64,000 bases of DNA from Octopus vulgaris (lineage: Eukaryota). This document shows, in pieces, positions 13,828 through 30,909 of the stretch (positions are counted from its first letter, which is position 1; the number at the start of each line of letters is the position of its first letter). Below the pieces are notes generated by a model, which did not search any database, had not been told where the DNA came from, and saw only the letters and a list, made by a program, of their open reading frames with translations. The stretch is taken from the NCBI GenBank assembly GCA_951406725.2, contig OX597814.1, forward strand, positions 90,024,001 through 90,088,000. Reading direction: 5' to 3'. Made by a program: the position numbers and the translations under genes.

Positions 13828-13939
13828 AATCTCCACAGGTTTCTTGAGGCATGATCAGCAAATATGTGAATTAAATCTGCTGGTTATTGACAGATAACTC
13901 TTTCCATCATACGCAACGAAATGGGCTGATAGGTTTCAT

Positions 13940-14005
<66 letters not shown>

Positions 14006-14050
14006 TTACTACTGCTACTACCGCTGCTGCTGCCGCCGCTTATACTACTA
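13828..14050 (+). mobile_element. Short 3'-end copy of the A-type R4/Dong family with (TAC)n tail
   Basis: Reads ILHRFLEA* followed by a 3' UTR homologous to 10450-10540, then (CTA)n at 13940-14050. Confidence 0.75.
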
Positions 14051-14051
14051 C

Positions 14052-14268
14052 TGGTTTCACATTATGCCATAGGGCCAGCAATTTCAGGGGCAGGAGTAAG
14101 TCGGTTACTTTGACCCCAGAGTTCAAATGTCACTTACTTTATCGACCCCCAAAGGATGAAATGCAAAGTCAACGTGGATGAAATTTGAACCCAGAACTTA
14201 AAAAACAGACGAAATACCACCAATTATTTTGCCCAGCATGCTAACAATTCTATTAGCTCGCCGCCTTA
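14052..14268 (-). mobile_element. tRNA-derived SINE (same family as 5824-6040)
   Basis: Same head and core blocks. Confidence 0.8.
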
Positions 14269-14879: not shown

Positions 14880-16048
14880 TGCAGCAGCAGCAGCAGCTGT
14901 AGTGGTAGTAGTAATAGTAGTGGTAGTAGTTGCAGCAGCATCAGCGGCGGCAGCAGCAGCAGTAGCAGCAGCAGCAGTAATAGTAGTAGTAGTAGTAGTA
15001 GATGAAACCTCTCAGCCTATTTTGTTGGGTATGATGGAAAGTGTTAGCTGTCCACACCTAGCAGATTAAGGTGACATATTTGCAGATTAAAAACTGATGC
15101 ACAAGCTGCACTGAATGGGTAGGTGAGTTGTCATGGTGCAACTGACACTCACCAGACGCATGCAATTGTGGCCTTTTTCGACGAATACCTCCCTCAAATG
15201 TCGCAAAGTCGTCACGGTAGTACTCCTTGTTTACTGTCGGGCCAGGTGGAGCGTACTCATGATGAACAATTCTCTTGTAGTCGAAGAAAACCATCAACAG
15301 TGTATTCACATTCCTTTGATTCATTCGAGCTTTCTTTGGTCTCGGAGAGGTTGGGGTCTTCCACTGCGAAGACTGAGCCCTTGTTTCGGGGTCATAGCCA
15401 TAGACCCACTTTTATGACTGTTTTCATCGTTCTCCATACAATTGAGGAGATCTGGTGCAACTGAAACCTGAGTGTCTTGGTCAGCTGAAAGTAGTTTCGG
15501 CATAAACTTGGCTGACCTGCATTCTTATACCTAAATATTCACTGATAATGGACTGAACTGAAACCGTAACTAATCTGCACATCCACCGACAATACACGGA
15601 TGATGATTCGACGATTTCGCGCCACATCTGCGATGTTTTTTTTCAGTTCTACTGGTAGCGGGTCTCTCAGAACATTCGTTCCTATCAACATGTTTTCGTC
15701 CAACTTGGAAACGTCTGAACCACTTGTACACTCGTGTGCAGCTCATACACTACTCTCCATACACTTTCTGCAACTTTGTGTAAGCCTCTCAGCAGGTATT
15801 ACCAAGCTTATTGCAAAATTTGCTGCAGATTCTCTACTCAACTTTTTCTGTCATGGTCAGTGCGACGCTCACACGCTACACACGTTCCTTCCAAGTACTG
15901 CTGTAAACAGCAAAAGTGAGCTAGAATGTTAAAACTTAGGGTGCATGCACGAAATGTTTCAAGGTCAATGCGTGCCAAGTGACTTTACTCTGCGTGCTTT
16001 AGCTTCGTTACTATGGCAACAGACTGGATACACATTGATCAGATCACG
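14555..16048 (-). mobile_element. Mariner DNA transposon, defective, with TIRs and TA target duplication
   Basis: TA|CGAGGTCTGATCAATAAGTATCCGGA at 14553 and imperfect inverse ...GGATACACATTGATCAGATCACG|TA ending 16050. Transposase motifs PKLLSADQ, FFDYKRIVHHEY..GPTVNKEYY, LHHDNSPTH and PPHSPDLALCDFF. Confidence 0.92.
14819..15088 (-). mobile_element. A-type R4/Dong 3' UTR plus (CTA/CTG)n tail inserted inside the mariner ORF
   Basis: Reverse complement of 15001-15088 (gcaaatatgtcaccttaatctgctaggtgtggacagctaacactttccatcatacccaac...aggtttcatc) matches 10455-10540 and 13855-13940. Confidence 0.8.
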
Positions 16049-16406
16049 TATATAAAATATAAATGAGTAACAGAAAGGTACAAGTGTCAATTCGTCATTC
16101 GGTCAGTACTTATGTACCAAGTTTGATATTTAATTAATATTGTTGTGAATGTATATCATTCACACACACACACACACGCATACATTTATGTGTGTGTGTG
16201 TGTGCGTGTGTGCGTGTGCATGCGAAAACGCACAAGTCACCATGCTAATAGTGTTCGATATGGAAACCACATTTAGCAGGTGCTTGAGTAACGAGTATAA
16301 AATGATTGAAACACAGGGTTGTTTATAACACGGGAAAAAAGGACAGCTTTAGTTGAAAAGAAGACGGAAGACATGTTAATGGAATTTTGACAATTTCATT
16401 ACATAT

Positions 16407-16573
16407 ATTATTTACATTATTTACATTAGACGGATATTTGTCCTCATCTTGTTTGTTGTTAACACAACGTTTCGGCTGATATACCATTCAGCCTTCTTCA
16501 GGTGTCTTGGGGAAATTCCGAACCTGGGTTCTCATGCCTAAGGTATTTTTCGATGTTATCATCATCATCATCA

Positions 16574-16641
<68 letters not shown>

Positions 16642-16790
16642 GTTATTATTATTCATGTTACTGCCTGGAATCGAACTCGGAATCTTGAGGTTAGAAGCCT
16701 GCGCTCTTAATCACTACGCCATATGCCCGTTGTGTTAACAACAAACAAGATGAGGACAAATATCCGTCAAATGTAAATAATGTAAATAAT
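16407..16790 (-). mobile_element. tRNA-headed, hammerhead-bearing non-autonomous retroelement with 63-bp inverted repeats
   Basis: tRNA-like head at 16728-16661 (A box TGGCGTAGTGA, B box GAGTTCGATTCC), (AAT)n spacer, hammerhead at 16506-16461. Inverted repeats 16407-16469 and 16728-16790 differ at one position. Confidence 0.8.
16461..16506 (-). ncRNA. Minimal type-I hammerhead ribozyme
   Basis: GACAC-CUGAAGA-A-GGCUGA(auggUAUA)UCAGCC-GAAA-CG-UU^GUGUU. Stem I is 5 bp, stem II is 6 bp, and stem III is the palindrome ACGU. Confidence 0.75.
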
Positions 16791-19619
16791 GTACATAATT
16801 CCTCATCTCTTAAATATAGAACTGTATTCATTACATATGTTTCAATAGTTACATCTATCGAATGAACATTATCAAAATATTTGGACATTTTTCAAGTGAT
16901 GAAGATAATTCGATAAAGATTATTGAATCATATTTAATGAAAAATAATCTTTATATCCAACTTAATGTAGATGTTTCGTTAGAACAATGAATACTGCTTT
17001 ATTAGCCTTGAGAAATCCTCTCATATTTGCTCTTGGGTCATAAGAGCACACTCGTAGATTGTAGCAGCCGAGAAGCTTTTGTCATGGGCGCCGGAATTCT
17101 CATATTCCGTGATGTCGTCCTACTGGAAACCATCAACTGGAAGCGACTGGTCACCGTATGCCATTGAAATCTCGGTGCTACAATACTTAGAATATTAGGA
17201 TCTCTTCAGATACTGATGCCGCAACTTAAATGCTGAGGATCCTGATCCAAACAGACCGCGACAGAAGCAGTCTGAATACTAATATGTAATCTTTATATCT
17301 AACTTAACATGGATGTCTTGGAATACTGCTTTATTAACCTCGAGAGATCCTTTCCTATAGGCACTTATGCAAAAAGCCTCATAACGTCTAGTCCATGAAA
17401 GTGTTACATTTTGTTGATCGCAGATGATACATTTGCTGACTTAGAGCGCGAAAGACCTGACCATGTTGAACAAGTTCATGATCCCCGAGTTGCCATGATT
17501 GGCATTGAAAACCAAGTGCGATGTATCATGACATTCCTTACATCATACTTCACTCTGTCATCCTGTACTGTCAATACGTTTAATACACATATAAGAGAGT
17601 TAACACTTTGGTACGCTCGGTAGCATCACATTAGATCATCTTCATTTTCTGTTTACTGGAAATATATGGCAAAACTTTCAAAATATATCATTGGTTATGT
17701 CATCCTACCTGGTGATTCCTCCTGCTTCTACTACCGCAATCAGGCTTCATTGCTCACCTAAATCAGACCTTCGTCACCATATAAAGATCATATATTTTCG
17801 CAAATTTACTGACTGCACATATGAAGGCATACATTTTAAATTTGGTAACTGTTATCACACTTATGAATGACCAATGTCTTCTTCTCTCAGTGAAAGAATG
17901 AACAGTCACATCTATTATGACGTATAATTCGGTTGCCTGTCTGCGTAAGTTGTATCGAAGTTAAAGTTATGGACAACAGTGAAAATCGTGTCTTCTTAGT
18001 GTATTAGAAGAAACATGGCACATTTTCTGCAATTTTTTCAATGTAAACCAAGCTAATATCTACTTAAAGCACTGACAATACCAAATGTTATTGTAAAATA
18101 ACAGATATTTCTTCAATGCTTTTATCTAACGTACCCGAATGTAAGATAGTAACAATAGTTTTGTATGAAATAAGTTAAATATTTTGATAAAAGACTATTT
18201 TTGTACATGAATGTTGCTTAGATTTAAAACAACTGATTTCAATTTGGTGATGGAAAGAAACCAATATAAAAATAGGTGTATTGATGATATTCGTCTGATG
18301 CACATATAAGCTGTTTAAGAAATTGGTTATGTAATGCCATATGGTACATTATAACCACGCGATTATAGAAGCCAAATGCCAAACAGAAGACAAAGTCTGT
18401 ACTATCACATTTAGCAAGAAGCTCACGAGTGTAGTTATAATCTCGAAGATATAGTCTTAAATTCTATTTTTCTCTATACGTAACACTACACATTCATATA
18501 AGACAATCACTCGCAATTCCACGTACATGTGATTAAAGTTTTTTTTAACATTTGATTCCCGCGACCGCCTATATTGTATGACATTTGCAATCGAAGCAGT
18601 TTCCTATCATCTCATGATCAATCGATTTCTCAATATCCTCTCTTATTCCCCGAAACCACCACTTCCACGTTTGCATAGTCTTTGTGTCCCTGAAATAAGA
18701 GTTAAGTCTGACATCTTTTACAATACAAGGAATGTAAAACTAAGAATAAAAATAAAAACACATGATAGCATTTGTAATCAACCTATTCCAGCTATTATTT
18801 CGAAACAACATTTCGAGCGAAGTAAGAGACAAGTAAGGATATAATTGATATGGAAGAACATTTCATGAACAAGAAGAAATAGAAAAGAAAAAGGAAAACG
18901 AAAAACCTATTTTCTTTTAAAAGTTTCCCATGTAAATTGAGCGTTAAATAACTGATAACCGGGAAGAAAAGTAAATGTACTTTGAGGACAAATGTGTTCT
19001 GTTGGAATTATCTAGAGAACACATGAGAAAAATCAATAAATGGCTTGTTCTACTTTAGAGATATGAATCCCATCACAGATAGTGACAGACTACTCCTACT
19101 ATTTTGAAATAGCATTTAAAAGACTCCGGTGAATCCATATAAAGCTATGTTTTAATTTTGTTCACTGAATAGCATATTTTATCGTGGGTCTTAACATCCC
19201 TTATGATCTCGTATGGAATCACAACAAAACGATTAATACTATTTTATTGCTGGGAATGCAAAATTAAGGAATTTATAATTTTAAAAATTCTTGTGTGTTG
19301 ATTGAATTATGAGTTAGAAACGATGTTCAGAATCATGCATTTTGAGGTCATGAATATTACACATGGATATTTTTGTGGAGTTAGAACAAGTATTTATGTT
19401 TTAGTTAACACAGATGATATATTCTAGTTTGGCAAGTTTAATAAGAATATGTTTATTTGATTTTTTTAAAAGTGTAAACTCTTCATGAACGAAATTTGAA
19501 TACTATAACTATGTGAAAATTTAAACTCGCGAATGCTTCTGAAATAAAAAGTAATGTCACGGAGAAAGTGTATAGGTGTGGAATCAAGACAAAGGAAGAA
19601 AATAATTGTTTTTAACTTA

Positions 19620-28884: not shown

Positions 28885-29102
28885 TTGGCTTCAAATTTTG
28901 GCACAAGTCCAGCAATTTTGGAGGAGGGAGTAAGTCGATTACATCTACCCGAGCGTTCGACTGGTATTTATTTTATCGACGCCGAAAGGGATAAAAGGCA
29001 AAATCGACCTCGGCAGTATTTGAACTCGGAACGGAATGTCGGACGAGATGACGCTAACCATCTTACCCGGTTTGCTAACGATTTTACCAGCTCGCCGCCT
29101 TA
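28885..29102 (-). mobile_element. tRNA-derived SINE (5824 family)
   Basis: Same head (reverse complement ccagctcgccgcctta) and core. Confidence 0.8.
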
Positions 29103-29300
29103 AAACATTTTAATATTAGATTGTGTTGAATATCTTCAAATATGATGTGACATATTACTTCATAGTTTTTAATCCTATGTTCAGCTCTATAACTGCTTAT
29201 GCATTTGTGTAAGATATGTATTAATATACTATAGCAGACACATGCTTCCTTAGCCTTAAACCTGATAATACTAATCTATATTTTTGAGGTGAAGAATTAT

Positions 29301-29770
29301 GTATATTATTTACAATGGATGGATAGGTGTCCTCGCCTTATTTGTCCAGCCTTCATCATGTGTTCTTGTGGAATTTCGAACCTAACCATTTATTTGATGA
29401 ATGGAGTACTCTGTTCTCATTGCTTAAGTATTTTCTTTTTGATGATGTTATTTTTTCTGCTGATTTTTTCCCAAATCCCTACGGACATATAGTGTAGTGG
29501 ATAAGATTGTGGGCTAGTAACCCTTGGGATCTGAGTTCAATCCCAGGCAGGAATCTGGGAAATAATATCGACCGAAAAAAGATAATATCAGCAAAAAAAA
29601 AAAACAGAATACCTTATGAATGAGAACAGAGTACCACATTAGTCAAATAAAGGGTTCGGTTCGAAATATTTCCAGAACACCTGGTGAAAGCTGGAGAGTA
29701 CATCAGCTGAAACATTGTGGTAACAATAAACAAGGTGAGAACACCTATTCCTCCATTGTAAATAATATAC
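29301..29770 (+). mobile_element. Second, older copy of the tRNA-head + hammerhead element with inverted 3'-end duplication
   Basis: Head at 29483-29550 (TAGTGTAGTGG, GAGTTCAATCC). Hammerhead remnant at 29676-29721, AACAC-CTGGTGA-A-AGCTG..CAGCT-GAAA-CA-TT-GTGGT. 29301-29475 is an inverted copy of the 3' part, with termini GTATATTATTTACAATGGA and TCCATTGTAAATAATATAC. Confidence 0.75.
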
Positions 29771-30909
29771 TTGAACCTGACTGTAGTTACTATGTAAAGT
29801 CAATGTCCTGAGTTGCAAAGAGATCAGAAGCAAAAATAATAAGCAATAAATAATTTAGAACTATATTTGCGGATATTTTACTTGAAATTCAAACATCCCT
29901 ATAGCATTTGAACGAATCAGCAAGACGAAATTGGTTTACTGATTCACATTAACATTAAAAATGAATGCGTAAATTTTAAACTAATCAGAGAAGATTTTAA
30001 TTTAAAATGATGGTGTTAGTGAAATACAAAACAAAACAAAAAGACAATGAAATATTTACACTACATTTAGTACAAGTATTTAGATGAATTGTTATAAGTT
30101 CAAAGGAAATTATCTAATTATTCTTTGTGAATAACGAATATATATATGACAATAAATAACTAAGATAATTACAGAGTTCACAAGGACAATTCGCTTTTTC
30201 TTCAAAAGTAACGAAACGATTGATTAAGAAACTAATTGCTTTGTGATTAAACGCATTATAAGAGTCATCTGCAAATAATTATCTTTGTACTAAGAGTATC
30301 GAGACAACTGATCGGATGTAAGTTAAGCATCGGTAAGAAATGGTTAATTAGACAGTGTCACAAAATCGTTGGTGCAGTTAAAATTGCATAAGAAAGGAAG
30401 CGTTGTTGTAATCATATTTAATACTAGATCAGAAATTATAAAAGGTAGGTACAATCAGTATGGCTGCCTTCACTAAAGAGAATATAATGAAAGGGTTACT
30501 TGGCTGAAGACAAATCATTTTAGGTAGAGATAGACACAAATAGAGATGTGTGAATTGATTTAATGCTTCATTTGCATATGGTACTGAATTACTTACGGAG
30601 CACAGAGTCACAAACGAGCAAGACAATACGTTTTGTATGCACACACGCACACGCACACACAGACGTACACACACATACGCACACACGCACGCACGAATAA
30701 ATATATATATATATATGTACAAACGCATATATACATATAGTTGGTTATATACACATACACGCATGCTTGTATTAGGTGTATACAGCTATTATGACTTGGT
30801 GAAACAAATAGGGAAAATAGACTTCAAAATATGAGTATATATATATACGCTTTTAATTTTTAATCAGTGGGAGTTGCAGAGTAACTCCTAGCACTTGAGT
30901 CACACACTC

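Follow-up and report, generated by a model that had tools for sequence, protein, structure and literature searches.

Head-to-head copies of a tRNA-headed Penelope-like terminal repeat in the Octopus vulgaris genome, probably copied from Pol III-started RNAs

A SINE-sized repeat that is abundant in the genome of Octopus vulgaris belongs to a coding Penelope-like element (PLE). The window, i.e. the whole stretch of 64,000 nucleotides that was analysed, contains one copy at positions 16395-16838, which we read as a head-to-head pLTR insertion of a tRNA-headed coding PLE, copied by the element's own RT/GIY-YIG protein from RNAs started by Pol III; we put the probability of this reading at roughly 0.68. 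The architecture that drew attention to the locus in the initial annotation is that of a standard Penelope, and the tRNA-derived start of the pLTR is the new part.

The initial annotation had described a tRNA-like head with A and B boxes, an (AAT)n spacer, a short body, a hammerhead with an intact core (16506-16461) and a tail, and all of these parts are present in their places on the minus strand. The tRNA-Arg-like head (16657-16730) has its tRNA position 1 at 16728, about 2 nt inside the beginning of the copy, and carries an A box (16711-16721, differing from the family majority at one base) and a B box (16667-16678), both assigned by sequence. There follow an (AAT)n/(GAT)n spacer of variable length that is found in subfamily A only (about 16558-16653), a body (16507-16557), a minimal type I hammerhead with palindromic stem III assigned by motif and fold (16461-16506) and a short tail (16407-16460), which is the 5' coding part of the PLE ORF. 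The frame from an ATG in the body (16535) crosses the hammerhead and the tail and reaches the PLE protein in ORF-bearing copies, with stops present in individual copies. On the plus strand an inverted arm (16728-16827), made up of the hammerhead 3' end and a long tail with an optional extension of about 35 nt, joins the head, and three bases (16728-16730) are assignable to either arm. This inverted tail copy had been recognised at a length of 63 nt; the arm is there, but it measures 100 nt because the extra long tail is included, and 62 of the 63 bases that it shares with the direct arm are identical. The insertion is bounded on the minus strand by a 12-bp target site duplication, with its upstream copy at 16827-16838 and its downstream copy at 16395-16406. 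Within the tail, at window positions 16407-16430 and in homologous tails, a 9-nt unit differs in copy number among insertions and keeps the ORF frame. Elsewhere in the window lie a minus-strand fragment (~15060-15411) with a transposase-like translation, which we take to be mariner, and a pair of 200-nt inverted arms (13854-14053 and 14888-15087).

The identity of the repeat is best seen where it is attached to coding sequence. In 29 of the 30 loci retrieved by an endonuclease-end search, the query locus itself included, the head stands right behind the endonuclease stop codon. Sequence upstream of the head that is common to several head-anchored loci translates as an endonuclease end, longer copies of this end extend upstream into an RT domain with an RVT_1 match, and RT-anchored loci have the same order downstream of the ORF. 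At the opposite side the tail leads into the ORF start (22/30 loci, the hammerhead also being present in 13/30), so that the prediction of a 3' part shared with a PLE held. Among ORF-start loci the head is found in 7/30, and the whole order of endonuclease end, head, hammerhead, tail and ORF in 3/30. The full unit thus reads ORF stop, about 27 nt, tRNA-like head, spacer, hammerhead, tail and ORF start, and partial tandems of the pLTR-ORF-pLTR type, in which the pLTR overlaps the ORF start, occur at L138, L167, L175 and L178. All copies of the family that were seen are decayed, and none of them has an intact full-length ORF. The endonuclease region of the ORF has no Pfam match, and the C-terminal endonuclease was called by motif and by weak similarity (E 0.001) to a PLE that is positive for PF01541. 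According to the accessible text of PMC8557442, a linker zinc finger tells Neptune/Nematis from Penelope/Poseidon; none could be read from the ORF translations, which points to the Penelope/Poseidon clade. On the sequence evidence, an autonomous element of the Penelope/Poseidon type has as its pLTR the whole unit of head, (AAT)n, hammerhead and tail. Metagenome contigs yielded no relatives with DNA context.

The idea of a separate SINE family with a borrowed PLE end is not supported by this result. Head and hammerhead do occur together (27/30 head-anchored loci, the window copy included), and the tRNA-derived 5' head with its A and B boxes is what a SINE should have; a SINE head should, however, be absent from the autonomous partner, and since the autonomous PLE itself carries the whole unit, head included, the separateness of a SINE is lacking. 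Other PLE families found in a GIY-YIG search, mainly Neptune-like with 781 aa, served as control. They were rejected as partner, the pLTR standing behind the ORF in 0/30 loci of the GIY-YIG Pfam genome search, and in 12 larger stretches of these families pLTR copies appeared in L101 only, where they are read as insertions. The Neptune-like PLE (L091-L098), in which the pLTR studied here was not found, has many intact 781-aa RT/EN frames (e.g. L094:1426-3769) and was therefore probably active recently; a frame of ~479 aa in another phase overlaps and precedes the RT/EN frame (L094:68-1505), a two-frame layout that would be unusual for a PLE.

The second diverged copy that had been reported at 29301-29770 was also found, within somewhat wider limits (29259-29780). 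It is a member of an older subfamily (B) without (AAT)n, and both the core and the palindrome of its hammerhead are mutated. An exact 7-bp target duplication on the plus strand (29259-29265 and 29774-29780) encloses an inverted arm of about 210 nt on the minus strand (29270-29480, ends approximate), consisting of long tail, partly deleted hammerhead and body, and a plus-strand direct arm (29481-29770) with head, spacer, body, mutated hammerhead and short tail; the A box lies at 29490-29500, the B box at 29533-29544 and the mutated core at 29681-29687. Subfamily B is ORF-linked as well, the head following the endonuclease stop in loci such as L307, L308, L318, L323 and L329. Just upstream of this copy (~28925-29105) lies another very common interspersed repeat, which recurs in the flanks of many loci.

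The assembly that was searched comprises 2.8 Gb in 227 contigs. A query of body, hammerhead and tail found 1342 candidates; 40 of them were scored, with identities of 94-96% for the best of these. Of 80 stretches of 10 kb, spread over 26 contigs and placed at round coordinates, 11 contained the element, and this sample gives an estimate of ~38,500 insertions (17,500-63,000). Most genomic copies are pLTR-only and begin no more than a few bases from the head; the ORF was reached by 1 of the 11 sampled insertions, and by ~50 nt. Copies are mostly single or head-to-head, not in the direct tandem arrays of the retrozyme or Sm-alpha type. The PLE-type geometry anticipated in the initial annotation is borne out by 51 pairs in head-to-head arrangement, among which one locus figures twice; their arms are inverted and combine one long with one short tail in 48/51. 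Target duplications had been expected to be lacking; they are of at least 7 bp in 29/51 pairs, against 2.7% of shuffled pairs, and of 12 bp at the window copy. Inverted arms, unequal tails and a target duplication are the published signature of PLE insertion, as far as described in the accessible parts of PMC3846280 and PMC8557442, and insertions of the anole PLE bear the same signature (PMC11167929). The two arms of a pair diverge by 9.0%, compared with 10.0% between pairs, and a lineage-marking site differs between the arms in 5/41 pairs; at least some pairs therefore probably stem from two RNAs. In three places (L165:1690-1775, L169, L168) ~230-250 nt of the ORF start are joined directly to the head start by an internal deletion, and one such junction is common to 2-3 places. 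An internally deleted mini-element as main source of the copies was rejected, being rare (2-3/40 scored places).

The hammerhead itself is unremarkable for a PLE. Stem I pairs 16506-16502 with 16465-16461, the core lies at 16501-16495, stem II has 6 bp and stem III is minimal and palindromic, with the cut predicted after 16466. The stem I/II fold is the minimum free energy fold of the window hammerhead (-14.4 kcal/mol, z -2.6), and a pattern search of the 64-kb window gave only two matches, one per copy. The search with hammerhead models that had been proposed as a check produced no Rfam match at the locus, and the putative identity rests on motif and predicted fold. The conserved core, helices I and II and the palindromic minimal helix III are those of a minimal type I PLE hammerhead. 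Minimal PLE hammerheads, in the accessible text of PMC4209133, have a short helix I, a long helix II, a palindromic 15.2-16.2, an unpaired base between 9 and 10.1 and a G10.1-C11.1 pair; the window hammerhead appears to share all of these with the metazoan minimal type I form described there, and nothing notable differs. It would be a pLTR ribozyme of the ordinary kind, for which dependence on a dimer or a protein is predicted.

Whether this ribozyme shapes the copied unit can be judged from the ends of the copies. It has been proposed for schistosome Sm-alpha and for retrozymes that the hammerhead cuts the transcript into the unit that is copied, and the initial annotation had likewise assumed processing of the element by its own ribozyme. 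Such a role would agree with an intact core in 66/104 subfamily A arms and 24/50 subfamily B arms and with the start of the window inverted arm at 1-4 nt from the predicted cut. However, 5' ends at -5 to +2 of the predicted cut amount to only 5/54 truncated ends, where 7.3% are expected (p 0.36), and do not cluster; processing of the template by the ribozyme is therefore not supported. Moreover, copies cross the cut site and have their 3' ends 55-95 nt downstream of it, and the anole element does without cleavage in vitro (PMC11167929). Cutting as the way in which the template is formed is thus largely refuted and very improbable, and the RNA that serves as template is likely uncleaved.

What sets the element apart is its head. 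The head is collinear end to end with tRNA genes of the same genome, and its probable tRNA origin rests on this alignment. Two tRNA-Arg genes align best (z 8.4 and 7.4); as the 25 distinct tRNA genes compared cover no more than 6 isotypes, the Arg isotype is tentative. Arms that reach the head tend to stop at its 5' end. In the two sets assembled without selection for the head, stops at -8 to +5 were found in 16/17 core-anchored and 5/6 genome-sampled arms, and in the others in 27/39 head-anchored and 0/1 incidental arms, where the truncation rate along the ORF predicts ~4%; the rate in the core is similar (54 of ~183 arms over ~109 nt). Single-arm loci also stop at the head (13/15 at -10 to +5), and fold-back is therefore not the explanation. 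In subfamily B, 8/22 arms stop at the head, which is weaker than in A. In L035 and L039, A runs directly precede -6, possibly as untemplated additions at the RNA 5' end. Pol III is expected to start ~13 nt before the A box, and the simplest reading of the pile-up suggests an RNA 5' end at this distance. Along the 2.3-kb ORF no TTTT site occurs in more than 5/32 copies and none at all in L138, compared with 8-9 TTTT runs in the Neptune-like control ORF. Codon shuffling gave 18 TTTT observed versus 46 expected in pooled, non-independent copies; with ~3.6 expected per ORF, the depletion is one effective observation with P about 0.03 by a Poisson estimate. There are exceptions, namely one long copy with 3 runs versus 2.7 expected and one control ORF that is also low (1 in 1002 nt), and the absence of conserved TTTT as a sign of Pol III is suggestive only. 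Together, the pile-up at the head 5' end and the lack of a conserved TTTT suggest a Pol III start, and Pol III transcription of the element is plausible.

The head might instead be a passive remnant of a tRNA or SINE behind the ORF stop, with transcription by Pol II and with the stops due to a Pol II start or to arrest of the RT at a palindrome. A short palindrome does overlap the head start; the accessible parts of PMC3846280 describe pLTRs of PLEs with Pol II-type motifs and 5' palindromes; and a coding unit of 2.7 kb is long for Pol III, an argument made in the accessible text of PMC10886601. The head, too, no longer folds as a tRNA, and it stays below the thresholds of Rfam and ARAGORN, which gave no tRNA match at the locus. 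Against a passive head stand the position of the stop at the expected distance upstream of the A box, the retention of A and B boxes in both subfamilies and a sense strand without conserved TTTT; structure in the head should, in addition, stall the RT at its 3' side and not at its 5' edge. We consider a passive head unlikely. RNA-seq mapped to L040 (three unstranded runs of one study) reflects many diverged copies, with both directions equal and no sharp starts or ends.

Two further readings build on a Pol III start within the pLTR. In the first, the whole ~2.7-kb unit, ORF included, would be transcribed by Pol III from a captured tRNA-Arg promoter in the pLTR, TTTT terminators having been purged from the coding strand, and would shed tens of thousands of SINE-sized copies; this far-reaching version is doubtful. 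In the second, a true SINE would have budded from the pLTR, its ORF-less copies being transcribed by Pol III, recopied in trans by the PLE and forming lineages of their own. ORF-less copies do dominate, as seen in the sampled insertions, subfamily A shows a stronger pile-up at the head than subfamily B, head-start arms cluster beyond chance in the tree (22 label changes versus 34 shuffled), and one hammerhead variant occurs in 16/47 head-start arms versus 2/56 ORF-linked arms. Yet the variant, which also occurs in ORF-linked arms, falls to 4/32 versus 2/56 (p 0.18) once the set that had been picked for resembling the window copy is left out, and it was rejected as a marker of a SINE clade when significance was lost on dropping this biased set. 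In the tree of 103 arms (weak support, biased sampling) head-start and ORF-linked arms are interleaved, and no clade separates them. The anole enzyme, furthermore, needs RNA beyond the RT start sites (PMC11167929), which copies ending at the tail lack, and the one internally deleted form is as rare as stated above. A budded SINE is accordingly improbable.

If the copies are pLTR insertions made from Pol III-started RNAs, their formation may be pictured as follows. Pol III would start ~6 nt upstream of tRNA position 1, in a pLTR with the ORF start behind it. The anole element has two internal RT start sites, and its ORF begins within the hammerhead (PMC11167929). By analogy with that element in vitro, the RT would start internally at one of two tail sites and run to the RNA 5' end, which would yield SINE-sized copies; one long and one short tail per pair fits two internal RT start sites. 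Both DNA strands would presumably be nicked and primed, one per tail site, and a single target duplication would then enclose two arms that meet at their heads, one with the long tail and the other with the short one. The element itself likely supplies the RT and GIY-YIG protein for this copying.

Pol III promoters of retroelements have been described for non-coding passengers such as SINEs and TRIMp3. A coding Penelope with a Pol III promoter in its terminal repeat would, if true, provide SINE-like repeats without the separate birth of a SINE, and the translation of an uncapped RNA would then call for an explanation. Were the whole unit transcribed by Pol III, a SINE and the equivalent of its LINE would be combined in one element. 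The copy set also lends genomic support to the PLE mechanism, with unequal tails in each pair, arms from two RNAs and cleaved RNA that is not used as template. In terms of annotation, the label tRNA SINE would be wrong for ~4x10^4 insertions in this genome.

No description of a tRNA-headed PLE pLTR was found in the openly readable literature. Octopus tRNA-derived SINEs with the names OK/OR1 and a tRNA-Arg origin were reportedly described by Ohshima and Okada in 1994. They may represent the present repeat under a SINE label, given the tRNA-Arg-like head, the similar size and the octopus-like host. OR2 is a CORE-SINE according to the accessible text of PMC4758252 and therefore probably not the octopus pLTR element; the accessible parts of PMC3531059, PMC4758252, PMC6962438 and PMC9223172 do not describe the element.

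The closest known systems are PAc of the anole (PMC11167929) and Pen2a of Adineta (PMC3846280, in its accessible parts). They share with the octopus element an RT and C-terminal GIY-YIG in one frame, a hammerhead in a pLTR that overlaps the ORF start, partial tandems, an inverted 5' arm, a one-sided optional tail of 30-40 nt and a duplication of ~7-14 bp. In contrast, the octopus pLTR begins with a tRNA-Arg-like head with A and B boxes, where Pen2a has TATA/Inr-like motifs (PMC3846280), and most octopus copies begin at this head, unlike those of PAc and Pen2a. Sm-alpha and Sj-alpha of Schistosoma, as far as the accessible text of PMC6765202 goes, resemble the octopus repeat as short abundant repeats in which a Pol III-type promoter is followed by a hammerhead, but they are non-coding tandem SINE-like units cut from multimers, whereas the octopus unit is dispersed, head-to-head, provided with a minimal hammerhead and the end of a coding element. 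The TRIMp3 elements Cassandra, Helenus and Ajax likewise have a small-RNA-derived Pol III promoter inside the terminal repeat; they are non-autonomous LTR elements whose autonomous partners are argued to need Pol II (PMC10886601, accessible parts), whereas here the autonomous PLE itself carries the head. Non-LTR retrozymes, finally, are non-autonomous PLE derivatives and resemble the octopus copies in being pLTR-derived, hammerhead-bearing and non-coding, but they are defined by direct tandem arrays, and the accessible text on them describes no tRNA head (bioRxiv 10.64898/2026.07.22.740005). Set among these systems, the octopus element is by every testable feature a pLTR insertion of an EN+ PLE that is SINE-like in its size and in its head.
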